A stretch of DNA of 38,470 bases, from positions 1 to 38,470 of the forward strand of contig JAUCBJ010000196.1 of NCBI GenBank assembly GCA_032718475.1. The letters are read 5' to 3'. Source of the DNA: Nemertoderma westbladi. Taxonomy: Eukaryota > Animalia > Xenacoelomorpha. Positions 3,890 through 28,049 of this stretch are shown here, piece after piece. Every line of letters begins with the position of its first letter. Position 1 is the stretch's first letter. The position numbers were made by a program, and so were the translations under genes. The notes under the pieces are model-generated. The model was not told the DNA's origin. It saw only the letters and a list, made by a program, of their open reading frames with translations, and made no database searches.

Positions 3890-5189
3890 ATGGGACATAA
3901 CGCTCATTGGGACCTAACGCTCTTTGGTACCTAACGCTCATTGGGACCTAACGCTCTTTGGTACCTAACGTCCTTTGGTACCTAACGCTCTTTGGGACCT
4001 AACGCTCTTTGGTACCTAACGCTCTTTGGTACCTAACGTTCTTTGGTACCTAACGTTCTTTGGTACCTAACGCTCTTTGGGACCTAACGCTCTTTGGTAC
4101 CTAACGCTCTTTGGTACCTAACGCTCTTTGGTACCTAACGTTCTTTGGTACCTAACGCTCTTTGGTGCCTAACGCTCTTTGGTACCTAACGTTCTTTGGT
4201 ACCTAACGCTCTTTGGTGCCTAACGCTCTTTGGTACCCAATGCTCTTTGGTACCTAACGTCCTTTGGTACCTAACGCTCTTTGGTATTGGTACCTAACGC
4301 TCTTTGGTACCTAACGCTCTTTGGGACCTAATGCTCTTTGGGACCTAACGTCCTTTGGTACCTAACGCTCTTTGGGACCTACGCTCTTTGGTACCTAACG
4401 CTCTTTGGTACCTAACACTCTTAGGTACCTAACGCTCTTTGGTACCTAACGCTCTTTGGTACCAAACGCTCTTTTGGACCTAACGTCCTTTGGGACCTAA
4501 CGTTTTTTTGGGACCTAACGTTCTTTGGTGCCTAACGCTCTTTGGTACCTAACGCTCTTTGGTACCTAATGCTCTTTGGTACCTAACGTCCTTTGGTACC
4601 TAACGCTCTTTGGTATTGGTACCTAACGCTCTTTGGTACCTAACGCTCTTTGGGACCTAATGCTCTTTGGGACCTAACGTCCTTTGGTACCTAACGCTCT
4701 TTGGGACCTACGCTCTTTGGTACCTAACGCTCTTTGGTACCTAACACTCTTAGGTACCTAACGCTCTTTGGTACCTAACGCTCTTTGGTACCAAACGCTC
4801 TTTTGGACCTAACGTCCTTTGGGACCTAACGTCCTTAGGTACCTAACGCTCTTTGGGACCTAACGTCCTTTGGTACCTAACGTCCTTTGGTACCTAACGC
4901 TCTTTGGGACCTAACGCTCTTTGGGACCTAACGTCCTTTGGTACCTAACGCTCTTTGGGACCTAACGTCCTTTGGTACCTAACGCTCTTTGGTACCTAAC
5001 GCTCTTTGGTACCTAACGCTCTTTGGTACCTAACGCTCTTTGGGACCTAACGCTCTTTGGGACCTAACGCTCTTTGGGACCTAACGCTCTTTGGGACCTA
5101 ACGTCCTTTGGTACCTAACGCTCTTTGGTACCTAACGCTCTTTGGTACCTAACGCTCTTTGGGACCTAACGCTCTTTGGTACCTAACGC
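3890..5189. repeat. 17-bp minisatellite, about 75 units of ACCTAACGCTCTTTGG(T/G), with a 329-bp higher-order duplication
   Basis: Uninterrupted tandem units with no spacers. Rare variants recur 329 bp apart: TTGGTATTGG at 4281/4610, CCTAACACTCTTAGG at 4411/4740, ACCAAACGCTCTTTTGG at 4461/4790. Confidence 0.97.
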
Positions 5190-5831: not shown

Positions 5832-6931
5832 TCCTCTTTCAGATGAGACAAATATTAAGTTAATAGCTCCAGTAGTTTTCGAAAATTTTCATTTTTTTAT
5901 CATTATATACTAAAAGAGCACCAAAAGTGCAAGTAGCACTTTTTTTAAACGTGGTAAATTGGCCGTACTGTGGCTACTGAGGTTTTAGAATGTGCTGATT
6001 TCATTGGGAAGGTTTATTCCTCTACATCAAACATATCGAAGAGTTGTGTATAATATAACAACATAGGGATGTTGTTATTTATATTAGTTATTAGTCAGCT
6101 ATTTGTGACCCCTGGAGAACGAAAAAACAAGTATTGGAATTATGGTAATGAAAAATCACCACGAAAACACGTTGATTTTATGACCATGTGGTTTTTTTGG
6201 GATGCTGATCACGAATATGACATTTGAAAATATCATACCTTGTTGATTACGGCTTTTTTGGATACGTGTCAATGTGCGGCACGAAAAATACAAATAGCAC
6301 AAATTTCATAATGAAAAATCATTACCAAATCAACCTGATTTTATAACATTTGGGGTTTTTTGGGATGCTGATCACGAATATGACACTCTTAAATATCGTA
6401 TTATCCATCCAACCAAATTTGATTTTTTCCCTTTGAAATTTTATGCTACTTGCATTTTTCGTCCCACCAGACAATCACGAAAAACGATAGTTGCGTTACC
6501 ACGAATTATTTTTAACGAGTTGTATCGTGATTAGCGACCTTGAAAACCAGTATAGTTTCAGAATTACCAAACCAAAGGCAAAATTTAACAGTTTCAAATT
6601 TTTGCTACTTGTACTTTTCGTTTTGGAGCACCAAAATTGGATTTGCACATACCAGATATATTTATAACTACTTTCATCGCGACCAGCTACCTCGGAAACA
6701 CGTATACGTGGTTGGAATTATCAAACAAAACACAAACGTTTTTAGTTTGACAGTTGTTTACTATTACATTTCGTCCTGGTGGTCCAAAAATAGCACCAAA
6801 AATGATTGATGCATTGCCAGAAAGTTTGACATGTTTTATCGTGATCAGCGTCCTCGAAATCCCTTATACCATCAATATTGTAATTTTTGAGCCAAGATCT
6901 AAAAAATTTCTGAGTAGAATTGAGATCCTCC
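5832..6931. mobile_element. Left part of an old foldback-like DNA transposon with modular long inverted repeats, interrupted by the BEL/Pao insertion
   Basis: 5832-5882 is an inverted copy of 23628-23678, and 5901-6016 of 23319-23447. Internal ~163-bp subunits are visible (GGGATGCTGATCACGAATATGACA at 6199 and 6362; inverted copy near 6838). Confidence 0.7.
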
Positions 6932-8140
6932 TGTTCGCGCTTTTGAAGACCTTTAGCAGTTTAACCTGCCAAAATTTATATGTCTTTTAGTTAATTAAAA
7001 CACCTTTAGCATACGACAATATTTTATGCTAATAAACAAAACATTACCCGAAGTCAGCCCATGCGCGATCATTCACCCGATGGATCTACACCCGGGAGGC
7101 TGAATTCGGCTGCTTAAATTTTATTATTGCAGTGTAAGGTTGCAGTGTAAACCTACTGTATTATTCGATTGATCGTTATTAATTAATTTCTGACAGATAT
7201 TATTGGCTTTCGGGAAATATTAACAGTTCCTTTAGGACGTGGCGCTCTATCTATTTAAACAGAACTAGGACTTATACTACACGCAACGATACTGCTTATG
7301 ATTAAAGTATAAAGCGCATTCTTTAGGAAATGCTTTGTTGCCAATCACAATCATGCACACTATTCTGCCGACCGTCAGTAAATTTGATCACACATAAAGA
7401 GAGCAGCAATTGACCCATGTAGGGTCTGCTAAATAACATTAGATTCAATACACACCACATTAATATAAATCGCAATTGCTATATATAGCCTGTCTCTCTA
7501 ACCTGTAGTGTATCAAGAAAATTGGGAAATTTGGGTGATTTATCAGTATTCTCCAAAGAGCAATATTTCCATCAACAAATAGATACAATTAATAACTGAC
7601 GGTAAATAACAGTACAAACAATATGATTAATAGTGAGTTAATTAGATCAGATAAGATTGATTGATTAGTTGATTGAGTTAGGTAACAGTTTATACTTTCG
7701 ATAATTTAAGCAGTTTTACTAGAGTTCTTCCCAAAAAGCCGGTGTTATGGCGAAAAATGGGAACACAACAACAGAATCATATAAAATCATATGACTACAT
7801 AAACCTATACGAGGATACCAACTACCCTTATTCCACGAAGCTCCCGTTCAACACAGAGGATGAGCATAGAGATAGGAAATTCAGTTCAGTAGCTCTGGGA
7901 TAGGTCGAAATCAACGCCCACTCAAATTCTATTGGCCGACACGGACAGCAGGGCAGAGGCAACCTCCCTAAACTAGTTGGCCGATTAAACTGAGCCCAGA
8001 TATCTCCGTACAGCACATCAGCCAATAAGCTGGTAGCTTGCACTATTTTAGTTATAAATCCCTTTGAGAGTATTCTAGCGACTGGGGGGGAACTGGCCAG
8101 CAAAGGCAAACGTATCAGTTATCCCACAAAAGCTTTTACA
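6932..8140 (-). repeat. 3' LTR of the BEL/Pao element (1209 bp)
   Basis: Direct repeat of 21277-22485. The only difference noticed is C7415 versus T21760. Candidate AATAAA on the minus strand at 7120-7125. Confidence 0.97.
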
Positions 8141-8150
8141 CCGCTCCCAG
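8141..8150 (-). promoter_or_regulatory. Polypurine tract (short)
   Basis: The minus strand reads CTGGGAGCGG immediately before the TGT of the 3' LTR, which is the PPT position. Confidence 0.7.
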
Positions 8151-8218: not shown

Positions 8219-9268
8219 TTAGTCTTTCTTGCGCGGACGGCGTTTACGCAGTTTTTTAAAGCTAGCAAGAGTCCTTTTCTCTTTGGGGCGAGCTACTTTA
8301 CGAGGAGGGCTATAACTCCGGGGTGAAGGGTGCAATATGATTGCATCAGAAGGTATGGGATTACGATCGGTATATCCGCCGGTCGAAGTACCGGGTTGAT
8401 TGACATCAACGTCCGGGGAGAGGGGTCTAACGGCTTTGAGAGCTCGTTTCAAGACAGCCGCTCTTACGGGTCCTTTACGAGTGGTCTGAACGAGGGCCGT
8501 GGGTGGACCATAGGCAGTTAGAAACTTCCTTGGTTTAATGGTTCTTTCCAACTCGCGTTCGCAGGCTCTGTACTCGTAAGGCCGTCGATATACTTCTTGT
8601 AACTCGGGGTGTGAGTTGACAAATAAGTCTCCATAGGCCGGATCTTGACGGATGAAGTTTATTAAGTTGTACGAATTGATGTCACTCGGATTAATGCTCC
8701 TGAGAAATTTGCGTACATATTTGGTTGAAATACATTCTCCAACGCGCTTCAATAGTTCATAACTTGATAGGCGTGATTTCTGCTCGACGGAGGCAAACAA
8801 ATAAGGATGGAACGCATAAACTCCTTCGTAAGCGCGTCCAGGATAATAGCGATGGCGTGAATCACAATGTAAATCAGCGTTCGCTTCCCAAGCTCTGATA
8901 TAACGTAGTACAATCATTTCATCTACGCTCTCTAAATCATGGTTAAAGGGACAATCAAAGCTGGCGTGTCCTTTTAATTGACAATGATGACATTGAGTCA
9001 TAAATTGGGGGCAGACAGCAAAAATGTGCAAATTATTAAGCCGACAATATGCACAATAGATTTCCATCGACGGTTGCTCGTGGAAATAGGAACAAAGATC
9101 GTTGGTGTCCATAGACGTAATATGGTCTCTCGATGCGCACAACCGACAACGTTGCCGAGAAACATAGTTGACATGGCGATAATCGTACGCAGTGAGACAC
9201 TGTGGACCTTGATACCATTCTAGGATGTAATCGTTGTCGCTGTTCCGAGCGCGATAGGCTGAATCTCC
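8219..9268 (-). CDS. Element-encoded accessory protein, C-terminal part: tandem CCHC zinc knuckles and a basic NLS-like tail; not an envelope protein
   Basis: The frame is open from 9268 to the stop at 8219 (first in-frame ATG at 9112). Motifs CAYCRLNNLHIFAVC and CHHCQLKGHASFDC (CX2CX4HX4C); C-terminus KKLRKRRPRKKD. No signal peptide or transmembrane stretch. Confidence 0.7.
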   Translation of the reverse strand, partial: GDSAYRARNSDNDYILEWYQGPQCLTAYDYRHVNYVSRQRCRLCASRDHITSMDTNDLCSYFHEQPSMEIYCAYCRLNNLHIFAVCPQFMTQCHHCQLKGHASFDCPFNHDLESVDEMIVLRYIRAWEANADLHCDSRHRYYPGRAYEGVYAFHPYLFASVEQKSRLSSYELLKRVGECISTKYVRKFLRSINPSDINSYNLINFIRQDPAYGDLFVNSHPELQEVYRRPYEYRACERELERTIKPRKFLTAYGPPTALVQTTRKGPVRAAVLKRALKAVRPLSPDVDVNQPGTSTGGYTDRNPIPSDAIILHPSPRSYSPPRKVARPKEKRTLASFKKLRKRRPRKKD

Positions 9269-9667
9269 TCAGATTCTAGACATATTGGTTCGTCTTCCCA
9301 GTCTGTTACGAATATAATTTTCGTGATCTATTCTCGGTTTATCGTTACGACTCCGCTGGGTATGATATTTAAATAGAACCATTTCCCTTTCGGTGTATAC
9401 ATCGTCCGTATCATGTAAATCGATAGGATGGCCGGTAGTTAGGAAGTCCATATACGTACCATTACGATGCGTATAGCGAGCGGTTAATTTTCGATAGTCC
9501 AATTCACGCGTAAGTTGCTCTTGGGACATCGGCGGTTCGATATAACGACCATCGTCCTCCGTAATAGTCGGATCGGCTTCACCGCGTATCAAGCTATCCA
9601 CAAACGCTTGTAAAGGTAGAGTATATCGCTCCCTGATACCAAGGTCATCTTCTATCAATTCCGTCAT
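9269..9667 (-). CDS. Element-encoded accessory ORF, N-terminal part (132 aa, unknown function), in frame with 8219-9268 across one TGA
   Basis: ATG at 9667, coding-like composition, ending ...ATC TGA. The next 42 codons are open and lead directly into the 307-aa ORF. Confidence 0.62.
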   Translation of the reverse strand: MTELIEDDLGIRERYTLPLQAFVDSLIRGEADPTITEDDGRYIEPPMSQEQLTRELDYRKLTARYTHRNGTYMDFLTTGHPIDLHDTDDVYTEREMVLFKYHTQRSRNDKPRIDHENYIRNRLGRRTNMSRI

Positions 9668-11285: not shown

Positions 11286-14200
11286 TCACGTTTGGGAGTC
11301 CCTAGATGTTTGAGGAATTAGGGAGGTGGTCGTGGGAAGAGTGTCTTGTCTTCCATAGTTTCCAGAGAGTTCTCTGTCTCTTTCCAGTAAACATAAACGA
11401 CCAACTGGGCGATTGAGTTGTTGCGTCTCAAAGATTATGCCAGGCTTCTTGAAGTTACGCCGCATAACGATGAGTTCTACTGAACGCACTAAACCATCCT
11501 CCGAGATATGGGTCTCGATGATACGACCTGTCTGCCACCGTTTACGTGGGAGGTCTGGATCTACAATAAGTACCATATCTCCGGCGCTGACGTTTTCCTG
11601 CTGCGCAAACCACTTAGTTCGAAGTTGTAGCGTGGGCAGGTAATGTTTCTCGAAATGGTCAGCGAAACGACGGGATAGCAACTGCATAAGTTGCCAAGTT
11701 CGACGGCAGTATTCGTCTCCGTCGACAATCTCCGATCGTGGGAGCATGGCTACCGGTTTCTTCAGTAAGAAGTGCGCAGGTGTTAGCGCTTCCAGGGAAT
11801 CGGGACTCGATGAGACTGGCATAAGCGGTCTCTCGTTGAGATAGGCAGCTATTTCCTCCATTAACATCCGCAAAAGTTCGTCGGTGAGATACGCACGGCA
11901 TGGCACTATAAAGTGAAATGCGGTCTTAACACTTCTAATTAATCTCTCCCAACTTCCTCCCCACCAAGGGGCGTCGGCGGCGTTGAAGGTCCAGCTAGAC
12001 GCTGTTATCCTTAGCTGGTCATCCACCTGTCTTTGGTTCCAGTCCTTTACGTAAGCCTGTATTTCGTTGTTGGCACCAATGAAGTTCGTTCCCTTGTCCG
12101 ATCTCATGGTATTACTCGTACCGAAGCGAGCGATCTGTCGTCGTAGACTTAAGACGAAACTGTTGGTAGATAGATCGTTCACCATATCGAGATGGATGGC
12201 TCTGCAAGTCATGCACACGAAGATGAAACACCATCTCTTGACTATAGTCCTCGCACGATATACTTCAATAGGGCCAAATAAATCTACACCAGTATTAGTA
12301 AAAGGTGGTTCATAGAAGCTTACTCGTTCCCTAGGTAATTCTGCCTCTCGCTGTGTTAAAGGCCTACTGAATGCTTTCCTACAGGGTATGCAGTTCCTAA
12401 GAACTTGGTTCAGAGCCCTACGGGGTTTATCAAAATAATAGCGAGTTCGAATTTCGCTAAGAACTCGTTCTCTTCCAGCATGATAAAGCTTACTGTGAAC
12501 ATCTACAATCATTTTGATTTGTACTTCAAGATTTCTAATGAGTATGGGGAATTTAGTGTCAAAGGATAAGGGTGCATTGGTTAACCTTCCTCCAACACGT
12601 ATTAATCCATCTATCATTGTGCTAGAGAATCGATCCCTTAAGCGCATCTGCGGATTTCTCAACAACAGGAAATACTTTTCGGAATCCTCATAGCATTGCA
12701 GGAGTCTCAGTATCTGTTTATTAGTCTCTTCATGCTCCTGGTGACTAATTTTCTCCTTTAGAAACCGGTCTGATATCTTGTACTTCGGTAGATCTTTAAT
12801 AACATAAACTTGCGCAGATGTTACTGGAGCAGGATCACTAGTGGTCTGCTTCCTGGAGTAATGATGGTGAAAACATCTCTTTAAGTATGTGATGGCTTTA
12901 CAGAGACGATTCCAGGAACTGTAATGATGCAGTGCTCTCTGCAGCAGGGGTGAGATTCCTTGCGAGACATCTGGTATCTCAGATTTCCAATCTCTGTCTC
13001 TAATTTCCACAACAGACTTGTTTGTGGCGAGGGATTGTGGATCCGAAGTATCGTTTTCGGCAGTATGTAATACAGATAGATCGATTGTCGGTTTAAATAA
13101 TTTCGATTTACTTGTTCTAATTTTGGGTTTGACTTTTTCCGCTCCCTTGGCTTGTCTAATCTCAGCCGTAGTAAGGTGAGGAGGCCATTCATCCTCTTCC
13201 TTGCTCAGGAAGTCGGGTCCACACAACCAGTCAGGGGTATCTATCAGTTCCTGTGGAGTTGCTCCTCTGGAGGCGATGTCAGCTGGGTTAATCGTACCAG
13301 GGCAATGTCTCCATTGATCTATCGTTGTGCGACTAAGAATAATGGCCACTCTGTTAGTAACAAAGACGCTGAACTGACAGACTTGATTGGTTATATATTC
13401 CAACACAAGTAAAGCGTCGGTCCAATAAACAGTTTTCTCCAGTGGATAATCGATCTGTTCCGTTACATTCCTGCCAATAGCTGTAGCGTATAAGGCTGCT
13501 TTTAACTCCGCCCGAGGAACCTTAAGCTTGTTGTTAATCAATGCCTTAGAGGTAACCAAGGCAACTTTGATTCCATCCGGAGTTTCGACTCGCAGGTATG
13601 CTACTATACCGATTCCCATATCGCTGGCATCTCCAAATACATGGAGTTGATAGGAATACGTAGGGAGAACATGACCAAAATATGAACGGGAAATTATAAA
13701 GTTCTCGATAGCAGGTAGCGAGTCCTCCCATTTCATCCATTTCTTTAATAATTCTCCCTTGAGGGGATCGTCCCACGAGTGGTTTTCAAGCCACATTTGT
13801 TGTACTAAACTCCGAGCAATCAATATAACTGGGCTAATAAATCCCAATGGGTCGAAATAAGTGCTCAGGATACTTAAACAAATCCGTTTGGTCCGAACTG
13901 GATTATCTCGCTGTTTTAGTTGAAAAAACAGGATATCTCTTTCCGTGTCCCACTTCAAGCCTAGCGTCTTGGTTTCAGGAAGATCGTCTTTTATTAAGTC
14001 TAGGTCTTTCGCTCCGCGATCCTCTACCGGTATGGCTTCCAGAAACTCACGGGAGTTACTAGTGAATTTCGTCAGTCGAAATCCACCTCTTTTCAAACAC
14101 TCTACCGTTCCTTTCGCGACAGCTATGGCTTCTTCTACTGATGGAAGGGACCTTAAATTGTCGTCCATGTATATATTGCGTTTTATGTTGTCTATCACTT

Positions 14201-17200
14201 CTTTGGAGAAGGAGTCTCGGTTGTCGTTCGCAGTGGTTCGCACCACGGAGCAGGCGTTGGAAGGGCTAGATATGATCCCAAAAGCCTGGATGGTCATCCA
14301 GTACTCCACCGGTTTCTGGTTGAGGTCTCCTTCAGGCCACCATAGAAATCTCAGGCTGTCTCTATCTCTCTCCAGCGCCTTGACTTGTAAGAACATTCCT
14401 TCAATATCGGAAGCGAACGCGATGGAATATTGTCTTAATCTCAAAAGTATTCCCAACAAAGATTGGAGTAAATTGGGTCCTGGTAACAACTCGGAATTAA
14501 GGGATTGGCCCATATATAGGGCGGAGCCATCAAATACGACCCGTACTTCATGGGGTTTACCGGGTTTGGGAACGTAATGATGTGTTAGATAATAAGTTCT
14601 TTCAGTTATTGGAGTTCCTTCCGGTACTCGCTCCGCATATCCCTTTGTGATAAATTTCTTCAACTGAGTTTGGTACATTTCCTTAGCTGAAGTGTTTGCC
14701 GTAAGACGTCGATGTAATTGATTGATTCTTTTCTCAGCCAAGGGTCTGTTATTTATAAATCTGGGTTCACGTTTTCGGAAGGGTAGTCCGATTTCATATC
14801 TACCTTGATCTTTTAAAAAACGTGTGGTTGTTTCCTGGATTTGTTTGGCTCTTTCTTCTTCTATCGACAGGGCTTTGTCGTATGAATTGGGTTCTACTAA
14901 TTCTTGGGTAAAGAATCGTACGGCGAGTTCGTCCCGAGTTCTAGCGTTGTAGCGCTCTACCTCGTCATTAAGTTCGTCATTATAAATAATGGATTCCGTT
15001 GGGCGAATCAGTTGACATAGGTTCGTTTGGTTTTTCCAAGTCTGATTCTCTGTAAGTAGGTCAATTGTGTTCTCTTCTTCGAAGAGTTGGTAGATGTCGT
15101 CATTATCTGAGGAGTATGGTGTTCCCTCAGTTAGTTCGTCCACCTCACTGCTTTCCACTTCCCAATCGTTTACTTGATATATTTGTTCGTGAGGCATTCT
15201 CTCTTCGAGAGTTCTACGGGAAGGGCCAGTAAAGTACCAACCTACTCTAGTTCTTACCGCATAGGTTTGCAGTGATTGTGGTTGAGCAGGCCGTTTCTCT
15301 AATGTTTCGAGCGCTTCGTGCGCGTTTTGGCCGATAAGTATTTGCACTCCAGGATAATCTGTCTGGAATCGAGGTATCTTCAGATGTTGGACGCTCTCAT
15401 CTTCGTCCCAATTATAAAGGTCTGCTTGAGTAGTAGCAAAGTTCTTTATAGCCACCATTTTTACTGACCTTATGCCTTGTGTTCCTAACTTATCCTGGGG
15501 GGTGGACAACACACCTACATAGTAATCTGCCGTTAGGGTAGATTTCCATACCTGCATAATTCCTGACATATTCAATTTAGTCCGGAACTTGGGTTGTCCA
15601 GCAAAGATATCTTCGGCTAGTTCTTGATCGATGAATGTTCCTGTGCTGCCGGAGTCCAGGAGGGCGTTCACTATGTAGCTTTTGTTAAGACCGTGAACTC
15701 TTACCTGAACTACAGGAAATTCTCTGATTCCTACGTTGGAAGCTGGAGCTTTCCAAGATGGTTGTTTGGCGAAATTAGTTGGGGAAAACTCATCGTTGAT
15801 GTCCTTTTCGTAAGTAAGTGCTCGATACACCGCGGTATTTATTAGATAACAGGATTCATTGGCGTCGGAGAATTCGTCAGTATAGAATCCTTCCATCTCA
15901 GACTCTTGATCAGTGTCATTTACGTCACTAAATTGGACATGCAGTTCGGGCTCACTTACCTGACTCTGTTTGTCTCGTTCGAACTCACTGTGTAACAAGA
16001 TGTGATGTTTCGAGCCACACTTTGCACACTTTATGTCGGAGTAACAGGTTCGCCGTTGGTGTCCTGGTCTGAGGCAATTATAGCATAACCGCTTGTCCCA
16101 CACAACTGTACGTCTGTCTACAAGGGATTTCTTTAGAAATTCAGCACACGCACTCAAACGGTGTGTCCCGTCGCACAGCGCACAGTTAGGTTTGATGTTA
16201 CTCACTTTACCTTGGTTAACTTGATGCACTCTCGTTTTTTCTTCAGGTTTTCTTCGGTGCATTCTGTTCGGAGACTGAGGAAGGGTCTTGGCAATTTGTT
16301 CTCTCCTATCGTTTCGAGCCTTGTATTTACTTACGTCCTTTGAGGTTTTGTCAACATAATAAGATCGGTCTGTGTCTTTCCCGCTGTCCTCTTCTTGGGA
16401 AGCTTGGCTTTCGCCGTCGTCAGTGTAACACACCGGTGTTACTCTTCTCCTAGAAGTGGGTTTCTCACTTACCTTATTTTCTGATGTTTTCTCTCTGGAC
16501 TGCTTGATGAGTTGTAGTTTTACTTCACCATCTAAGAAAGACATGAGATCAGCCATGGTAGGACTTCGTCGTTGTTGTTCATTCATGTACAACACTTTCT
16601 TGTCCCAGCGTGTACATACTCCACCCTTTGGTAAAGTAGAGACTACGGCTCCAATAACCATGGAACTCTGATATTCATGCGACTTACCTAACCAGTCCAG
16701 TTGTCTACAGATCTCTTGAATTTCATCGGAAAACTCTATAATCCCGCTACTAAGGAAGTGTCGGGGGGCTACTAATTTTGCATACAAATACTTAGCTATG
16801 TTATCCTTGTTACCATACCTGATGTTTAGTGTATCCCAAACTTGTCTTAATCCATCTGGATGTCCAATAAACTTTAACGCCATTAACTTGGGAGGTCCTT
16901 CCAAGCACTTGATGAGGAACCTAAGTTTCTCTCCGTTAGATAGCACAGAGTTCTGTATGCTGTCTTTGTAATATTCGTTGAAAGGTAACCATTTCATTTC
17001 GTCTCCATTGAATTTGACGATCTCTCCCACTTTGACCGCTTGGCGGGCTTCTGTTCTAGCCATCTGACGCGTAAAGCTTTCTTGGGCCATCGTGTTATTT
17101 AATATCGAATTATCGGTATATAAATTTCTCGGATCATTATCAGGTCTATAGGGAATATCATTAATAACAGGTCTATAATCACCCTTAATAGGGTTTGCTA

Positions 17201-19298
17201 TAGGAGTTTCAACTTCACTAGCAGTATAGATGCGTGTAGGCTCCACACCTTGCGCATGTAATACTTCAGACCTAACAGGTTGACACAATGTTACAGGGGG
17301 GATTGGTATGCCCTTTTGTATATTGACTAATTTGTCGCGTTCTAGCGCGATACTTTGCTGCACTTCTTGCAACTCTGCTCTACCTTCCCTCACTGTTCCC
17401 TTAAGTTGGTGGACAGTCTCCTGCATCTGTCCTAGCAGGAGATTCATCCCCCGCCGTCCCTCTTCCACCCACTCAACCGCCGAAGCGGGAGTCGCCAACA
17501 TAGTAGCGGGCTGACGCGGGACGACGGGAGACAAATTATTGATTTCTCTCTCTGCTATCTGGACAGGGATATTCTCTTGGACTGTTCTACCGGGTACAGG
17601 CAGTGTAGTACTATGTAAAGGGAATTTAGAGTTAAGCTCTGGAAGTACAGGGGTCTCTAGCACAGAAGTGACTTTGGGAACAACAGGCCTAATTATTTCA
17701 GGTTCATCGACTATAGTAGGGAGCCTTTGGACCTGGATAAATCGTTCTATGGGTTCTGCACTACCTAAGTCTGTGCTAGTTAGCTGTCTTTTAACAGCTG
17801 GGGGCAAATCAGGCAATTTGCGACGGTAAGATGTTTTTCTACGCCTACTTAGATGAGATCTATTTCCTCCGCCTTCAGGATCGGTGGTCTCGCCTTCCTC
17901 CGAGGATGTGTATCCCTGGCGCTTGGGAGTAGATTTTCTCATCATCTGCATTTGATTAGCAGTAAACTGTTTATTTATACTGTCTTGTGTCTCTTGCAGA
18001 TTTTCCAACTCCAGTTGGGTAGTCTGCTCAGCGGCTCTCCGTTCTGCTTCTGCCACTGCCTTTGCTGCTTTTGCATCTGCCGCCGCTGCCTTTCTTTCTA
18101 CTTCTGCTTCTGCCATAGCCGCCGCCTTTTGTTCCTCTATCTTTCTTTTCTTTATTTGTTCTTCTCGGACTCTAGTGAGGCGGAGTTTTTCATCACATTC
18201 AGCTTGGTTTGCAGCTAACATTTCGGCATCGATTGAGTCCAACACAAGCTTGGTTCCTTCACTATTAGGGGAAAGTCCAGACAGCCGTCTCCTCAACTCT
18301 TCGTCTCCTAGGAATCGCTGATAGTCGGACAAATAAATGTCGATAGCGTCTCTAGTTCGCGGTTTCTCGGCGATCTCTTCGCTTTCCGCTTGAGAAAGGG
18401 TGACATCAGTTAGTTCTTCATAGGTTGATCTCTCAGCCAGCTGGGATTTCCACTGGGCCGTTTCCTGTACTTTGAGATCTACCCGATGTAACCAAGTTTT
18501 GACAGCAACCTGCAGCGACGTGTCCTGTCTTCTTTTGGAAGTTTCCTCAAAGGCTGAGAGGATTAGTCGAATGCGTAGGGTTCTTTCGCGTACTTGGTAT
18601 AGCAGCTCTTCCTGCTCTTGAGGTCCTTGAAGTTGTCGAAACAGTTGTTCTTCCAATCGCTCCAAGGAGCCGAAGAATCCCTGCACATATCCTGCTGCCG
18701 ACCTCTTCCAAACAGCTGGATCCATTGTATCTTCAGCCACTCCCATCCTGTGTATATCTTCCCAAGTAGCCTCGGACAGATCCAACGGGAGTCCGAGTCC
18801 GGGAAAGTTCCATTGTGACTCGACAATAGACATCAATTCTTCCCTGGCGTATCCCGCATAATTATCTTGGGTCGCTCGCTTATTCCTCGCCCAGTCGGCT
18901 TGATGTTCCTCCACCGCAATGAATATAGTAGTTAGCACTGCAGCAGGAAGGGTAAGAAGGGGGTCTGAGTAGACTGTAACAGCCATCTGCACTCCGCCTT
19001 CGGGGGTCAGCTCTACAGTATCCGAACTACTGGAGCTATCGGGTCGCTGGGAAGTAGGTTCTTGACCAAGATGTTGCTGCGATAGGACAACTGCCTCTTG
19101 GTTCCGTTTGACCTGTGCCCGAGTACCTATGATGGACCTATGGTGGATTAGCCTAGGGTCTGATACTACTGGAGGGATGACCTTTTTTGCAGTACGAGGT
19201 GAGCTGAACTCCTTTCTTAATCGCTCTATACTCCTATCTGAGTCACAGATAGTTGTATCGATCAGACTGTCTGACAGGTTTTGCTGAGTGTCAGACAT
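11286..19298 (-). CDS. BEL/Pao Gag-Pol polyprotein, 2670 aa (long N-terminal extension, Gag, three Zn knuckles, aspartic protease, RT, RNase H, integrase)
   Basis: Gag core KFNGDEMKWLPF...LSNGEKLRFL. Triple knuckle CALCDGTHRLSAC/CYNCLRPGHQRRTC/CAKCGSKHHILLH. Protease ALLDSGS. RT VRVVFDGS, SDIEGMFLQV, YMDD. RNase H LHVFGDAS, PRAEL, WTDA, NPADIASRG. Integrase HSKLYHAG..CIPC, GVDLFGP, SDKGTNF, GGSWERLIRSVK. No stops or frameshifts. Confidence 0.97.
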   Translation of the reverse strand: MSDTQQNLSDSLIDTTICDSDRSIERLRKEFSSPRTAKKVIPPVVSDPRLIHHRSIIGTRAQVKRNQEAVVLSQQHLGQEPTSQRPDSSSSSDTVELTPEGGVQMAVTVYSDPLLTLPAAVLTTIFIAVEEHQADWARNKRATQDNYAGYAREELMSIVESQWNFPGLGLPLDLSEATWEDIHRMGVAEDTMDPAVWKRSAAGYVQGFFGSLERLEEQLFRQLQGPQEQEELLYQVRERTLRIRLILSAFEETSKRRQDTSLQVAVKTWLHRVDLKVQETAQWKSQLAERSTYEELTDVTLSQAESEEIAEKPRTRDAIDIYLSDYQRFLGDEELRRRLSGLSPNSEGTKLVLDSIDAEMLAANQAECDEKLRLTRVREEQIKKRKIEEQKAAAMAEAEVERKAAAADAKAAKAVAEAERRAAEQTTQLELENLQETQDSINKQFTANQMQMMRKSTPKRQGYTSSEEGETTDPEGGGNRSHLSRRRKTSYRRKLPDLPPAVKRQLTSTDLGSAEPIERFIQVQRLPTIVDEPEIIRPVVPKVTSVLETPVLPELNSKFPLHSTTLPVPGRTVQENIPVQIAEREINNLSPVVPRQPATMLATPASAVEWVEEGRRGMNLLLGQMQETVHQLKGTVREGRAELQEVQQSIALERDKLVNIQKGIPIPPVTLCQPVRSEVLHAQGVEPTRIYTASEVETPIANPIKGDYRPVINDIPYRPDNDPRNLYTDNSILNNTMAQESFTRQMARTEARQAVKVGEIVKFNGDEMKWLPFNEYYKDSIQNSVLSNGEKLRFLIKCLEGPPKLMALKFIGHPDGLRQVWDTLNIRYGNKDNIAKYLYAKLVAPRHFLSSGIIEFSDEIQEICRQLDWLGKSHEYQSSMVIGAVVSTLPKGGVCTRWDKKVLYMNEQQRRSPTMADLMSFLDGEVKLQLIKQSREKTSENKVSEKPTSRRRVTPVCYTDDGESQASQEEDSGKDTDRSYYVDKTSKDVSKYKARNDRREQIAKTLPQSPNRMHRRKPEEKTRVHQVNQGKVSNIKPNCALCDGTHRLSACAEFLKKSLVDRRTVVWDKRLCYNCLRPGHQRRTCYSDIKCAKCGSKHHILLHSEFERDKQSQVSEPELHVQFSDVNDTDQESEMEGFYTDEFSDANESCYLINTAVYRALTYEKDINDEFSPTNFAKQPSWKAPASNVGIREFPVVQVRVHGLNKSYIVNALLDSGSTGTFIDQELAEDIFAGQPKFRTKLNMSGIMQVWKSTLTADYYVGVLSTPQDKLGTQGIRSVKMVAIKNFATTQADLYNWDEDESVQHLKIPRFQTDYPGVQILIGQNAHEALETLEKRPAQPQSLQTYAVRTRVGWYFTGPSRRTLEERMPHEQIYQVNDWEVESSEVDELTEGTPYSSDNDDIYQLFEEENTIDLLTENQTWKNQTNLCQLIRPTESIIYNDELNDEVERYNARTRDELAVRFFTQELVEPNSYDKALSIEEERAKQIQETTTRFLKDQGRYEIGLPFRKREPRFINNRPLAEKRINQLHRRLTANTSAKEMYQTQLKKFITKGYAERVPEGTPITERTYYLTHHYVPKPGKPHEVRVVFDGSALYMGQSLNSELLPGPNLLQSLLGILLRLRQYSIAFASDIEGMFLQVKALERDRDSLRFLWWPEGDLNQKPVEYWMTIQAFGIISSPSNACSVVRTTANDNRDSFSKEVIDNIKRNIYMDDNLRSLPSVEEAIAVAKGTVECLKRGGFRLTKFTSNSREFLEAIPVEDRGAKDLDLIKDDLPETKTLGLKWDTERDILFFQLKQRDNPVRTKRICLSILSTYFDPLGFISPVILIARSLVQQMWLENHSWDDPLKGELLKKWMKWEDSLPAIENFIISRSYFGHVLPTYSYQLHVFGDASDMGIGIVAYLRVETPDGIKVALVTSKALINNKLKVPRAELKAALYATAIGRNVTEQIDYPLEKTVYWTDALLVLEYITNQVCQFSVFVTNRVAIILSRTTIDQWRHCPGTINPADIASRGATPQELIDTPDWLCGPDFLSKEEDEWPPHLTTAEIRQAKGAEKVKPKIRTSKSKLFKPTIDLSVLHTAENDTSDPQSLATNKSVVEIRDRDWKSEIPDVSQGISPLLQRALHHYSSWNRLCKAITYLKRCFHHHYSRKQTTSDPAPVTSAQVYVIKDLPKYKISDRFLKEKISHQEHEETNKQILRLLQCYEDSEKYFLLLRNPQMRLRDRFSSTMIDGLIRVGGRLTNAPLSFDTKFPILIRNLEVQIKMIVDVHSKLYHAGRERVLSEIRTRYYFDKPRRALNQVLRNCIPCRKAFSRPLTQREAELPRERVSFYEPPFTNTGVDLFGPIEVYRARTIVKRWCFIFVCMTCRAIHLDMVNDLSTNSFVLSLRRQIARFGTSNTMRSDKGTNFIGANNEIQAYVKDWNQRQVDDQLRITASSWTFNAADAPWWGGSWERLIRSVKTAFHFIVPCRAYLTDELLRMLMEEIAAYLNERPLMPVSSSPDSLEALTPAHFLLKKPVAMLPRSEIVDGDEYCRRTWQLMQLLSRRFADHFEKHYLPTLQLRTKWFAQQENVSAGDMVLIVDPDLPRKRWQTGRIIETHISEDGLVRSVELIVMRRNFKKPGIIFETQQLNRPVGRLCLLERDRELSGNYGRQDTLPTTTSLIPQTSRDSQT

Positions 19299-19433: not shown

Positions 19434-19684
19434 GAATACCGGTATGCTTATAATATATATAAGTATTATCACAGACTAGATTTGCTACAGAGTACCGGTA
19501 TATAATTTTAGCACAAATATATAAATATATAGTAGGCCTATAGTGAATACCGGTATACAGCTTACACTTATAGGATATATAAGTATAATTATTACAAACT
19601 AGAATTAATTACAGAATACCGGTATGATTTCAGCTCAAATTTATAGAAATAAATATAATAAGCCTATGGTAAGTACCGGTATGT
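19434..19684. repeat. Degenerate tandem repeat in the element leader, with five TACCGGTA palindromes
   Basis: TACCGGTA at 19437, 19493, 19548, 19617 and 19674. Alternate spacers resemble each other (a ~120-bp dimer repeated twice). Confidence 0.75.
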
Positions 19685-21080
19685 CAATTATTTTTAGAAT
19701 AATTGAATTTCTGAATATTTTAGGGTTACTTGGTTACTTTAACTTACTTTATTACCGTTATTTAAGCAGTAGTCCAACTGATATTGAGACCTAGTTGTTG
19801 TCTGGTAAGCCTACTATTTATAAATCGTTTGAGTTGATTTATAATAGATATATACCCGTTTAAAAAGGGTTTTTTTGTCAATATTTGAAATAAATGTTAT
19901 TATTTCTGGGGGAATCACTACACAGAAGCTGTGCGCTCTCAGTGAAGTGTTACTTATTGAGACACTAAAACTGATAATTCTAATTTACCTAAGTTACTTA
20001 ATACTACAAATTACTTACGATATGGGTGAGATTAATTCTCTAATTAAAACACAACAAAAATATTACGTACGAAATTTTTAGGGTAATTTTACAGGAAGTC
20101 TACAAACCAGCTTAACAAAGGGTTAGAATTCTGGTTATTACAACGGACAGGGTACTACGGTATTTGAAATAATAAGTAGCAGTAAATATATTGCACTGTC
20201 CAGATAGGAAAATACCACCGCCTGACGACCTATAACCGTATCGCTATAGGTACTACGTTATGTATCACGGATTGTTCCTACCTAGAAGTTAATAGAGCTA
20301 ACGAATGTGCCTATCAACCACTTTACAACACAAATATACTGCCCACACACTAATTACTTCGGACAGCACTGTACACTAAACCCTAAATTAGGTACAAGTA
20401 CCGGTATAACAAATAATCAGTAGTTAAATATACTTGAACAGTTAAAAGAACCACGGCATCTGCTGGAGTGACCGAAGCACAAAATCTCCAGTCTTTACCT
20501 ACGCCGAGCAGCCCTGATGTAGTACCGGGGTTAGTTTAACTATAACGGTATGTATAACAAGCACAATTACTGTAGGAATAAACTTGGGGACATGAATGTT
20601 GCGAATAATCGCATAAACTCTGAATAATAAATATTACGCTACCCGTACAGAATACTCAAACAAAAATGCAAACCAAACGCTGGCAGACTACTATCAAGCC
20701 TAAACAAACTACAGTATGTGCAGATTCTGAAACTGTTAGTTAGTATGCGTTCTAACACGGTAGTACGACTTATTCTTTAAGAGGGGATTGACCTTACAGC
20801 ATATGGCTGCCCCAACTTACTAACGGCACTTTATCAGACAAACTCTACACACGCCGTAATCTCTCCAAACCCAACAACAGTCAGACAGCAGCTCAGCCTA
20901 CAATTATCTGAACAATCTGAGCAGGGTCACACGCCTTCTGCTCAATATTAGCCTACTAGGAAATAAAACCGACAGAAATAGGTAAAATCTCAATAAAAAT
21001 TCAGGGCTGCAGTCCCTGATTAAGTACTAAGACCTACCGGTATACACCAATCAAATTCGAATAATACTAATGTACTGATA

Positions 21081-21209
21081 CAGCAGTACCGGTTAGGACA
21101 GTTGGGCCTACAGACCTACAGAAGTACCGGTTCTGGCAGTTGGACCTACGGACCTACAGCAGTACCGGTTCTGGCAGTTGGGCCTACTGACCTACGGAAG
21201 TACCGGTTC
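21081..21209. repeat. 38-bp tandem repeat (~3.4 units) in the leader near the primer site
   Basis: Units such as CAGCAGTACCGGTTCTGGCAGTTGGGCCTACTGACCTA start at 21081, 21119, 21157 and 21195. Confidence 0.9.
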
Positions 21210-21264
21210 AGGTTACCGGTCACTACGGTATTTTGCAACCTTATTGCCTACTGCAATAAGATCA

Positions 21265-21276
21265 ATAAACTGTTAC
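21265..21276 (-). promoter_or_regulatory. Putative self-priming primer-binding site (non-tRNA)
   Basis: Element-sense GTAACAGTTTAT abuts the 5' LTR end and lacks the TGG of tRNA PBSs. It is the perfect reverse complement of element-sense ATAAACTGTTAC at 22038-22027 in the LTR. Confidence 0.6.
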
Positions 21277-22485
21277 TGTTCGCGCTTTTGAAGACCTTTA
21301 GCAGTTTAACCTGCCAAAATTTATATGTCTTTTAGTTAATTAAAACACCTTTAGCATACGACAATATTTTATGCTAATAAACAAAACATTACCCGAAGTC
21401 AGCCCATGCGCGATCATTCACCCGATGGATCTACACCCGGGAGGCTGAATTCGGCTGCTTAAATTTTATTATTGCAGTGTAAGGTTGCAGTGTAAACCTA
21501 CTGTATTATTCGATTGATCGTTATTAATTAATTTCTGACAGATATTATTGGCTTTCGGGAAATATTAACAGTTCCTTTAGGACGTGGCGCTCTATCTATT
21601 TAAACAGAACTAGGACTTATACTACACGCAACGATACTGCTTATGATTAAAGTATAAAGCGCATTCTTTAGGAAATGCTTTGTTGCCAATCACAATCATG
21701 CACACTATTCTGCCGACCGTCAGTAAATTTGATCACACATAAAGAGAGCAGCAATTGACTCATGTAGGGTCTGCTAAATAACATTAGATTCAATACACAC
21801 CACATTAATATAAATCGCAATTGCTATATATAGCCTGTCTCTCTAACCTGTAGTGTATCAAGAAAATTGGGAAATTTGGGTGATTTATCAGTATTCTCCA
21901 AAGAGCAATATTTCCATCAACAAATAGATACAATTAATAACTGACGGTAAATAACAGTACAAACAATATGATTAATAGTGAGTTAATTAGATCAGATAAG
22001 ATTGATTGATTAGTTGATTGAGTTAGGTAACAGTTTATACTTTCGATAATTTAAGCAGTTTTACTAGAGTTCTTCCCAAAAAGCCGGTGTTATGGCGAAA
22101 AATGGGAACACAACAACAGAATCATATAAAATCATATGACTACATAAACCTATACGAGGATACCAACTACCCTTATTCCACGAAGCTCCCGTTCAACACA
22201 GAGGATGAGCATAGAGATAGGAAATTCAGTTCAGTAGCTCTGGGATAGGTCGAAATCAACGCCCACTCAAATTCTATTGGCCGACACGGACAGCAGGGCA
22301 GAGGCAACCTCCCTAAACTAGTTGGCCGATTAAACTGAGCCCAGATATCTCCGTACAGCACATCAGCCAATAAGCTGGTAGCTTGCACTATTTTAGTTAT
22401 AAATCCCTTTGAGAGTATTCTAGCGACTGGGGGGGAACTGGCCAGCAAAGGCAAACGTATCAGTTATCCCACAAAAGCTTTTACA
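21277..22485 (-). repeat. 5' LTR of the BEL/Pao element (1209 bp)
   Basis: Direct repeat of 6932-8140, followed by the TSD CCTCC. Confidence 0.97.
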
Positions 22486-22490
22486 CCTCC

Positions 22491-24273: not shown

Positions 24274-24889
24274 GAACACAGTTTACAGTAAAAATTTTAC
24301 CTCTAGGCACTAATTTTTTCAATATAAATTTAACATTAACCCTATGAAAAGGCTGAAACGACACCCCAATTGGCTTTTTGCGTTCCGGTCACGGTACTGC
24401 GGTAAGGATCTTTAAAATAATACTACAGTAGCTAGAAATCTACTAAACTATAATGCAGAGCTGCTAATCACGTAATCAACGCTCTAATTATTAGCCTACT
24501 TACAGTAGCTTTGTCCTGTATTATCGAGACACTGGATCATAATATCCATCCATACTACCATAGATCATACAGTGGATAGACTGATTATAATGTTGTATGA
24601 ATGAATGAATGTACACCATGGCCCGTAAACAAAAAGCAATTGGGGTGTCGTTTCAGCCTTATCATAGGGTTAATGTTCAATTAATATTGAAAAAATTAGT
24701 GCCTAGAAGTAAAATTTGACTGCAAACTGTATTCCTAAATTTAGTTTATTGTTTTGGTAAAAAAAAGCCTGCCATTATAACCTGCTACTTTCCTTTACAA
24801 GGTACCTTAAATTGTGAATTGAATATCGTAATTAAATATTCGCGAAATTAAGTTAATATGTTAAAATAGGCTGAAACGACACCCCAATT
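24274..24889. repeat. Inverted pair of ~120-bp repeat arms plus a third core copy (MITE-family fragments)
   Basis: 24274-24397 and 24611-24734 are reverse complements with few mismatches. The core AGGCTGAAACGACACCCCAATT recurs at 24868-24889. Confidence 0.85.
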
Positions 24890-24928: not shown

Positions 24929-26693
24929 GGGTGCATGTAAAGAGCGGAATGCGGACTACGGACTGCGGATTGTCAATTAAAAGCCCAAATATGCGCGGTC
25001 AATTTGAATTATAGCATTATAATGTAAGAATCCGCTCTTTGTTGTCTGGACAAACGGCGGACTGAAGCCAGAAAATTGTAACCTGATTGGCTCAATCATT
25101 TACATAGGCCCAAAGGGAACTTTCCTGAATCCTCTTATTGGCTTAAATGTTTTCATTGTGACACAGAGATGGAAACCTATTATTTTGAAAACCTATTATG
25201 TAGGCAGTAGGAAGAACTCTTGAACTTTCAATAAAATCTCTCAGGTTAAGGCCGGTTCACTCTTTTAAGCATGATTCATTCGTAACTCTACTTTGGATGA
25301 AGACTTTGGGACTACTGTAGTATGTACTTCTGCTGCCGAAGCAGAGTTATGCTTATTGCTTAAAGGTGTGAACCGCGACCTTATAAGATATTCCTTGTTT
25401 GCTTGTTACTTAAATTAAAAGTTTTTACGTTGGGGTCGTCCAAAAAAAGGGGGAGGGGGGGGGGGGGGGGAGGTTGTGCTCGTACTGCCACTATTATGTC
25501 TCTGTTAGTTGAAACAAAATTGGAACATAATTGAAACATATTAGTCGTACATCAGACATACTAGTAGTGAAACAGTTATTTTTCCAAGATTGACCGACTT
25601 ATTAGCGTTCAAACATTTCCGACGATGACAACGACAGACGGGTCCACCACTTATACCCATATGCTAAGGCTCACCTGGACTTACGTTGCTCGCCCCACAG
25701 TTAATCGCCCATGTGAAGAATACCAGGATTTCACTTTTCGGTCGACTTTTTATTGGAATTTTATATATGAAGATTATTTATTTTTTTTAATTTATCTTTA
25801 TTAAGTGTTTTATATCGCTTATTTCTGTCTTATAACCTGTACATATACTAATTCGTTTATTGTTTTGGTTAGATTCAGCCCTTCTGTAACCTGTATATTT
25901 GGTGAAAACCTGGTATTCTTCACATGGGGGTAACTGCAAAGTGAAATATAACGGCAGAAAGTCTGGTATACTTCACATGGGCCCAGTTAATCGTATGTCA
26001 GTGTCAGATATGTAGGATATCACAGCCCACACTAAAAAAGCATTAAAAAAAGCACTAGCCGATCAGGTGTTCGTGGTTTTCATTTTAAGGCTGTCATAAA
26101 AATTTGGACAGAATTAAACTGTTTGCCAGTAATTAGATGCGTCCTATTGGATGCTATTTATAGATCCACACCCCTTTTCTTTGCCCCTGTTCCCCCTTTT
26201 CTTACGCTCTCTTACCCCCAGCACAGAGAAGATCTTCCCCCAGCTCCTGCGCTTAGGATGTCCGAATATTTGCTCTTTTATATTTGCGAACAGACAACTG
26301 TGACATGAACTCTAAAGGCAGGAAGTATATAAAAATATTTATTGAAATAAATAATCTGAAAATCCGTAGAATGTTGATTATATAGTAGGCCCTTAATCAA
26401 CAGTCCACGTAATTACTGTATAGGATAATTATTTCCTGTATTACAGTGTTGCACAATGGTAAACATTTAAAAGCCAAATGGGATGATTCATTCTTTAAGT
26501 TCCCTTTCAGCTTCAGCCTATGTACATGATTGAGCCAATCAGGTTACAATTTACCGGCTTCAGTCCGCCATTTGTCCAGACAACAAAGAGCGGATTCTTA
26601 GTTTGGAAGTCGATAATTCAAATTGACCGCGCGGATTTTGGCAATCCCCAGTCCGTAGTCCGCCAGTCCGCAGTCCGCTCTTTACATGCACCC
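24929..26693. mobile_element. Non-autonomous Mutator-like (MULE) DNA transposon, 1765 bp
   Basis: ~190-bp imperfect TIRs (GGGTGCATGTAAAGAGCGGA... and ...TCCGCTCTTTACATGCACCC) and a perfect 9-bp TSD CCAGTACAT (24920-24928, 26694-26702). No transposase ORF. Confidence 0.88.
25707..25983. mobile_element. MITE nested in the MULE
   Basis: GCCCATGTGAAGAATACCAG versus CTGGTATACTTCACATGGGC, with an extra internal inverted copy at ~25902-25928. Flanked by the direct repeat CAGTTAAT(C) at 25698 and 25984. Confidence 0.8.
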
Positions 26694-26948
26694 CCAGTAC
26701 ATCACAATCGGCCTACAGCTACAGCAATACAAATACCGGTACAGTACAACCAACCCAACTGTTAGTTGCCTACTCCTGTACTCACTCCTACTGAAGCTAT
26801 TTCAACGTCTGAACGTGCTGTTCAAACCACCGCATTTTGTTCAAGTTACTAATACCAGAATACTAATAAATAACCTACCGCTACCGCTTCTGCTGTACTG
26901 CGCTACCTGACCCCATTTGCTCGCCATAGGTCTAACTGAAACGGAGCA

Positions 26949-28049
26949 ATGGAAGCGGAATGTGGAAACGATTCTAATGAATATGGAGATAACTCAACCT
27001 CCCCCGCGGAAGCCGCCAACGAAACCATCGGAATATTATCCACAATATGTAGTTACATACGTAACTCTAGTTCCGTCAAAACCCCACAAACTCACGAAGC
27101 GAGAAAACGATCCTACGTGACCGCAGAATCGGCGGAAGAAGACGACTCCACTGTGACAAAAAGAATAAAATTATCTAATCGTATATCCTTCTATCGTCGC
27201 CACGACTCTGGTGACAGCGGTACACCCCAATCCTCGCAGAAACGTAAATCCTTCTTCTCCGCTTTATTGTCCCCTGTTGTTAATCTATTTTCTCCGATGA
27301 TTTTCGGGACTAAGGCTCTAGAAGAACCTCCCAACAACATCGTAACGACCAACAACCGTGAGATGGACTGCTCTCTCCGGCGGGGATACAATCTCGGTCT
27401 GTGTCCCGAGTGGTTCGACCCCTACATGTTTATTAAGAACGCGCCAACTATAGATACAGCGTCTCTGTTTAGCCCGGTACTTCCAGTTCGTACGAGAAGC
27501 AGCCAGGAGTATTGCTTAGTTCTCGATTTAGACGAAACTCTAGTTCACTGCAGTCTAGAAGCTTTAAACGATGCGGACTTCCAATTCCCAGTTCTTTACA
27601 ACAACGTTTCTTATCAAGTTTTCGTAAGAGTGAGACCCCACCTCGAGGAATTCCTACAACGTCTTTCGCGATGCTACGAAATAATTTTATTCACCGCGAG
27701 TAAGAAAGTCTACGCGGATAAACTAGTGAGTTTGCTGGACCCCGGTAGGAAGTGGTTCAAACACCGACTGTTCCGGGACAATTGTATCTCGGTTCAAGGG
27801 ATCTACGTGAAACACCTGGGCGTACTGGGTCGGGATCTCGCCAAGACGATAATCGTGGATAACTCGCCCCAGGCGTTCGCCTACCACATGTACAACGGGA
27901 TCCCGATAGAGAGTTGGTTCTCCGACGAGAGGGACATCGAACTGTTGCGTTTGATTCCTTTCCTCGAACGCATCGTCGAGGGACGGAATTCCGACGTGCG
28001 GAATTGTTTGCGTAGCGAATACCGTCTGCACGAGATGCTACCCTCCTGA
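26949..28049 (+). CDS. CTDSPL2: CTD small phosphatase-like protein 2 (SCP4), FCP/SCP HAD-family phosphatase, uninterrupted CDS, 366 aa
   Basis: Catalytic DLDET in [19 protein letters not shown]2-typical FDPYxFIK, LPxx[43 protein letters not shown] and C-terminal RLHEMLP are present. Confidence 0.93.

Follow-up and report, generated by a model that had tools for sequence, protein, structure and literature searches.

A BEL/Pao retrotransposon of Nemertoderma westbladi (Xenacoelomorpha) probably primes its reverse transcription with a 12-nt stretch of its own RNA and not with a tRNA, as judged from sequence comparison and RNA folding. The element lies within the window, that is, the whole stretch of 38,470 nt of contig JAUCBJ010000196.1 that was analysed. 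The original prediction of self-priming was made from the letters of the window; its coordinates were all correct, and its central reading is now supported by comparative evidence from other copies of the family and from all eight related loci that could be scored. The comparison also suggests that in most relatives the corresponding primer is interrupted by an intron.

The features of the element are collected in Table 1. By its proteins the element is filed as BEL/Pao, in departure from the ICTV profile of the family. The gag-pol product has Pfam matches to DUF1759, Peptidase_A17, Integrase_H2C2 and DUF5641, and its translation reads through a triple Cys-His box, a DSG protease, a YMDD reverse transcriptase (RT), a DAS RNase H and an integrase. 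[quoted passage not shown] The best protein homologues have the same Pfam set, with identities of 38–43% over RT–RNase H for the closest. The original prediction had described BEL/Pao elements as generally tRNA-primed, and the ICTV profile of the Belpaoviridae indeed lists an 18-nt primer-binding site (PBS) for tRNA-Arg or tRNA-Gly, along with a length of 4.2–10 kb and a replication that is poorly understood (PMC8742986); here there is no TGG, and the length is 15,554 bp. Gag-Pol has about 760 residues ahead of DUF1759, and most of the homologues listed measure 1,500–2,200 amino acids. Both extra open reading frames (ORFs) sit in the 3.1 kb that separate pol from the 3' LTR. The longer may encode an accessory RNA-binding protein; a Pfam search with it gave no match, and its atlas leads to zf-CCHC clusters were all under 0.9. 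The copy number of the 38-bp leader repeat differs between contigs.

Table 1 Features of the BEL/Pao element in the window
Feature	Position	Strand	Details
Whole element, BEL/Pao	22485-6932	-	15,554 bp, intact
5' LTR	21277..22485	-	1,209 bp, TGT...ACA
3' LTR	6932..8140	-	1,209 bp; 1 mismatch with 5' LTR
TSD GGAGG, upstream copy	22486..22490	-	
TSD GGAGG, downstream copy	6927..6931	-	
Conserved block holding the 12-mer	22021..22060	-	Contig comparison of family copies
TATAAA overlapping the 12-mer	22034..22039	-	Lost in the one-base-shorter variant
Predicted self-primer ATAAACTGTTAC	22027..22038	-	LTR nt 448-459; exact reverse complement of PBS
Predicted cut	after 22027	-	By analogy
12-mer copy in 3' LTR	7682..7693	-	
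AATAAA, only one in LTR	21465..21470	-	Likely poly(A) signal (putative function)
Predicted U5 hairpin upstream of PBS	21291..21331	-	z -3.7, region chosen after seeing fold
Non-tRNA PBS GTAACAGTTTAT	21265..21276	-	Directly after 5' LTR
Predicted 11-bp leader hairpin	21237..21263	-	Right after PBS; z -5.0, chosen after seeing fold
38-bp tandem repeat	21079..21209	.	3.4 copies, in 2-kb leader
126-bp tandem repeat	19447-19682		2-kb leader
gag-pol	11286..19298	-	One intact ORF, 2,670 aa; translation and Pfam
Extra ORF	9269..9667	-	132 aa; no Pfam family
Extra ORF	8219..9112	-	297 aa; two CCHC-like knuckles and basic C-terminus, motifs read directly
PPT, purine-rich tract GGGAGCGG	8141..8148	-	Adjoins 3' LTR; relatives with similar tracts

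Elsewhere in the window, on the plus strand, a mitochondrial carrier gene (1876-2793) and a CTD small phosphatase-like gene (26940-28049) each consist of one uninterrupted ORF. Both are far from all animal homologues listed, the phosphatase-like protein having an identity of about 60% with many different animal groups equally, and the host is perhaps intron-poor and fast-evolving. A 17-bp tandem array of 75 copies occupies 3898-5189. Two pairs of terminal inverted repeats, at 24983-26642 (127-nt arms) and 24292-24717 (87-nt arms), are likely non-autonomous DNA transposons.

The stretch that adjoins the 5' LTR, where a PBS is expected, pairs exactly with a 12-nt segment present in both LTRs, starting from the first base after the LTR. 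TGG, claimed to be missing from about 55 nt after the LTR, is absent from the 80 nt that follow it. The reverse complement of the PBS occurs within the window at 22038-22027 and 7693-7682 only, and among the 13,111 internal positions of the element a single one, the first base after the LTR, has a perfect 12-nt LTR complement. The 12-mer is expected 1.6e-4 to 3.6e-4 times per LTR strand (Markov orders 0–3), which agrees with the earlier estimate of order 1e-4. The distance from the 12-mer to the LTR end is 750 nt and, for an RNA start at 22038, U3 measures 447 nt, both figures as given originally. A U5 stretch (21308-21299, minus strand) resembles the 12-mer in nine of 12 letters and could compete for pairing with the PBS; the predicted fold places this rival segment in a local hairpin instead. 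An element-encoded tRNA-like primer was also sought, and ARAGORN returned no genes in the window and Rfam no matches over the element.

Variation among family copies was read from contigs of five runs (X1, X3, X4 and X5 in one comparison, X1-X4 in another); runs X1-X5 represent at most three or four studies, one of which is possibly the source of the window, and X5 is guessed to be an RNA run. Coverage of the LTR and the leader is hundreds of times that of the flank, which fits many copies, depth not being a count of copies. Near the LTR site, none of the substitution rows listed falls between 22018 and 22058, conservation reaches approximately 22 nt upstream of the 12-mer, and subfamilies diverge at 22061. 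Downstream on the element strand the contigs are hypervariable, with many different loose ends at 22015-22026 among those listed and strong variation in the 40 nt after the 12-mer block. A form of the LTR site that is shorter by one base of its A-run is present in five contigs in X1, X3 and X4, although in X3 the agreement of the two contigs is only 0.7, with a possible difference at the last base, and a PBS shortened by the matching base is present in one X1 contig; the two short forms are unphased, and rare changes of the PBS may have escaped the rows listed. Just past the PBS 12-mer, which is itself intact, one base is missing from most copies. Position 13 of the PBS is G in most copies and A in two X5 contigs and is able to pair with 22039; one low-depth X5 joint crosses the PBS. 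The intact reading frame, the near-identical LTRs and the many copies together argue that this PBS works.

Relatives were gathered by a metagenome scan that gave 76 loci from the best 80 of 628. At ten loci the contig included the 3' ends of both LTRs, and the flanks diverged; L026, being truncated, was excluded, and the eight with repeats ending in ACA were scored for contiguous and intron-split primer matches alike. The original prediction had named compensatory changes between the PBS and the LTR in related families as a check. All eight scored loci (from the best 80 of 628) lack TGG and have a PBS that pairs with their own LTR over 10–15 nt, in letters that differ between loci, the pairing beginning within 2–4 bases of the LTR end. 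At none of the eight did any of 400 pseudo-PBS controls reach the observed length. Cross-pairing is weaker, the window LTR scoring at most 8 with the PBS of relatives and their LTRs at most 6 with the window PBS. L012 has 10 contiguous nucleotides, a marginal match because one unrelated cross-pair reaches 10 nt. In the other seven (L011, L013, L017, L034, L055, L057 and L064, with two-copy LTR ends), 11–15 nt pair only across a GTAAG...YAG intron, and eight further loci whose end was picked by the scan (L007, L030, L032, L052, L063, L065, L066 and L068) are split in the same way. These are canonical GT-AG introns with a polypyrimidine tract, and splicing would have to build the primer. Since L011 equals L013, and L017, L034 and L057 are related (they share half of the primer), the eight scored loci amount to about five independent cases.

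The unscored L047 has an 11-nt split match with an end chosen by eye, and L042, also unscored, has TGG near one possible LTR end at about position 92. TGG also follows a possible LTR end in L015 (about 460-480) and L037 (about 1090-1115), which may be tRNA-primed exceptions. Among the 15 primers tabulated, 12 end in AC, as does that of the window, and three in AT. In a scan of 40 loci with one LTR, which picks the LTR end itself and so is not independent, and in which many contigs have no full LTR, eight had intron-split matches of 11–13 nt, two had contiguous matches of 11–12 nt, apparently a local hairpin and a chance match, and 30 reached 10 nt or less; a looser junction scan of 20 loci added four cases of 10–11 nt. 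Matches of 16–17 nt in L003, L022 and L045 were dropped as contig-edge artefacts. No relatives were found among viral contigs, and the LTR pattern had no matches in metagenome contigs.

In a FastTree tree of 67 sequences, with no named reference element, the window shares a group with L035, L036, L065 and L068 (local support of 0.99, on a long branch and with a midpoint root). Two of these four have 12-nt split matches, across a 94-nt intron in L065 and a 77-nt intron in L068, each the best of 26 and 60 candidate ends, respectively; L035 and L036 have no readable LTR. An intron was also tried in the window LTR, with its donor in the 12-mer, either of two acceptors and 11 nt of pairing kept, and was rejected as unsupported for its poor donor and the loss of the AC end that the relatives have in common. 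The 25 G-free bases that follow the 12-mer (1.9% of LTR 25-mers) are not common to the relatives, which have 1–8 G there. Given the split matches in the relatives, the window element is the uninterrupted form of a signature spread over distant BEL/Pao elements, and because of that spread the signature is probably older than the window family and common to a wider BEL/Pao group. The proposal that self-priming evolved independently in this lineage thus stands as far as a separation from Tf1/sushi is concerned, but probably not as a feature confined to this lineage.

Under the self-priming reading, the genomic RNA would start at 22038 or within about 12 nt upstream of it, and its 5' end would pair with the PBS 750 nt downstream, between the predicted U5 and leader hairpins, with a predicted energy of -12.6 kcal/mol. 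The 3' arm of the leader hairpin is missing in one variant contig. By analogy with Tf1, the RNA would be cut after its 12th base, probably by the RNase H domain that the element encodes, freeing a 3' OH that faces the LTR end; RT would then copy U5 and R (approximately 750 nt) and jump to the 3' R. In the retroviral scheme, the primer is itself copied during plus-strand synthesis and so gives rise to the new PBS. A single change at the LTR site would in this way be carried into the PBS, and the point where pairing stops should therefore mark the 5' end of the primer. Most relatives would arrive at the same primer by splicing out the LTR intron. A fuller scenario, which we put forward tentatively, is that a broad group of animal BEL/Pao elements primes with its own capped RNA 5' end, that most members splice a first exon of a few bases to exon 2, and that the window family, whose host has no introns in the two genes next to the element, may have lost the intron and carry a ready-made primer at its start site, with both sites changing together in each cycle.

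An RNA start at or within about 12 nt of 22038 is plausible and, on balance, slightly favoured by the sequence and the folding model. Its support comes from that model, from a TATA box in L068 and from the sharp end of the pairing. The predicted probability of the duplex between 12-mer and PBS is 0.94–0.97 for starts at 22036-22050, 0.36 at 22060 and at most 0.03 from 22065 upstream; it is 0.42–0.64 when the folded RNA extends to 21100. The perfect TATA box of L068, TATATAAG (about 2150-2185), stands 31 nt before the primer and implies a first exon of about 5–7 nt, and L065 has a weak one at about -33. A T-A step lies at 22039/22038 in the window. The AATAAA at 21470 would place the R/U5 border near 21450, with the 12-mer upstream of it. 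The stretch GCTTAAAT just upstream of the primer is common to L068 and the window LTR (22056-22049), a likeness seen after the fact. Opposed to this start are the absence of a TATA box at -31 in the window LTR, the distant TATA boxes of two relatives and, for split primers, the requirement of a very short first exon.

In a variant of self-priming that we regard as rather unlikely, the primer is internal, with an RNA that starts well upstream of 22038 and for which only the cut after the 12-mer matters. In its favour, the primers of seven of the eight scored relatives span an exon–exon joint and so need a first exon, which a start at the primer would reduce to 4–10 nt; the TATA boxes of L057 and L047 lie 135 and 165–167 nt upstream of the primer; and in the window family both the conservation upstream of the 12-mer and the possible pairing of PBS position 13 reach beyond the 12-mer itself. 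However, the folds sequester the 12-mer for starts at 22065 and beyond, the TATA boxes of L068 and L065 stand close to the primer, and a long primer, unless RT stops, can be reasoned to produce an unpaired tail when the second strand transfer takes place.

Priming by a fragment of a host tRNA or by another small RNA, with the LTR match as a by-product or a regulatory fold, is improbable. Half-tRNA priming has been described for some Ty1/copia lineages (PMC6317226), and the ICTV describes the family as tRNA-primed (PMC8742986). A mature tRNA, however, needs the TGG that is absent here, the PBS sequences of the relatives differ from one another and each match their own LTR or splice joint, and an external primer would not be expected to lead to a matched loss of one base at the LTR site and the PBS. 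We give even less credence to the 12-mer being a TATA box for a start near 22008, with the PBS match a coincidence or serving another purpose. The TATAAA at 22039-22034 is followed approximately 32 nt downstream by an initiator-like TCAATC, and in Tf2 the RNA from a downstream start is described as unfit for reverse transcription (PMC5341516), so that a second start of this kind may be present here too. Yet the TATAAA is an unlikely explanation of the 12-mer, because the shorter variant destroys it and the would-be start region some 30 nt downstream varies most, and the exact complement and the relatives would be left unexplained. Chance beside a decayed primer site is very improbable: with many elements scanned, a 3e-4 event is expected somewhere, but the element is young and intact, and the conservation of the site among contigs and the same signature in eight of eight scored relatives bring that reading close to refuted.

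Self-priming has been described for Tf1/sushi elements, predictions of it exist for Tcn1 and for the TAR lineage of copia (PMC6317226, PMC10085805, PMC4600332), and tRNA priming has been argued to have come late (PMC3601003). As in Tf1 and Tf2 of Schizosaccharomyces pombe, Tj1, and the Tf1/sushi and Tcn1 chromoviruses (Ty3/gypsy), the PBS of the window element complements an 11–12-nt LTR segment and not a tRNA. In Tf1 the RNase H cut is described as falling between bases 11 and 12 (PMC7175516). The window element, however, has BEL/Pao proteins and no Pfam match to a chromodomain, its primer lies 750 nt from the LTR end, and its relatives split the primer by an intron. The two flanking duplexes of the Tf1 'pretzel', as that structure is outlined in PMC10085805, were not found, shuffled sequences doing as well as the candidates for them in 17 of 60 and in 26 of 60 cases. 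With neither pretzel nor chromodomain, the element probably primes as Tf1 does and yet is not a member of Tf1/sushi, to go by its sequence and predicted folds. The plant TAR lineage of Ty1/copia (Houba, Osr-1) offers the parallel of self-priming predicted from sequence outside Ty3/gypsy (PMC6317226), in another superfamily with another domain order and in plant hosts. The fungal copia element GalEa and the bivalve biv-TRIM likewise have no canonical PBS and have a hairpin next to the LTR (PMC5445492, PMC6934838); their authors found no LTR complement, whereas here there is an exact one.

Among BEL/Pao elements, Sinbad shares the three Cys-His boxes, the DSG and YxDD RT motifs, the DAS RNase H and an integrase after RNase H (PMC554778), and Sinbad, Suzu, Pao, BEL, Tas, Dan and Flow share Peptidase_A17, DUF1759 and DUF5641. 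The window element differs from known BEL/Pao elements in having no tRNA-type PBS, a length of 15.6 kb, a 2-kb leader and two extra 3' ORFs. The words 'tRNA' and 'PBS' are absent from the main text of two BEL/Pao papers (PMC554778, PMC3118150). Full-text searches, judged by titles and the starts of abstracts, found no published self-priming or spliced primer in BEL/Pao, a result that applies to literature outside subscription journals, Repbase reports and supplements (for example, to PMC6317226 and PMC3118150).

Animal LTR retrotransposons have three large superfamilies, of which BEL/Pao is one, and its ICTV profile assumes tRNA priming (PMC8742986). Self-priming members would escape annotation tools built to require a tRNA site. 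The window element is a clean test case, being intact, young and abundant; its primer is uninterrupted, and a one-base variant occurs naturally at both sites. The predicted splice-built primer of the relatives is the most surprising part. If the reading is true, these elements would be freed from the supply of tRNA and, we infer, from silencing by tRNA fragments. BEL/Pao would then join Ty3/gypsy, where the route has been shown for Tf1, and Ty1/copia, where it is predicted for TAR, as the third self-priming superfamily, which bears on the question of whether self-priming is ancestral or has arisen repeatedly.
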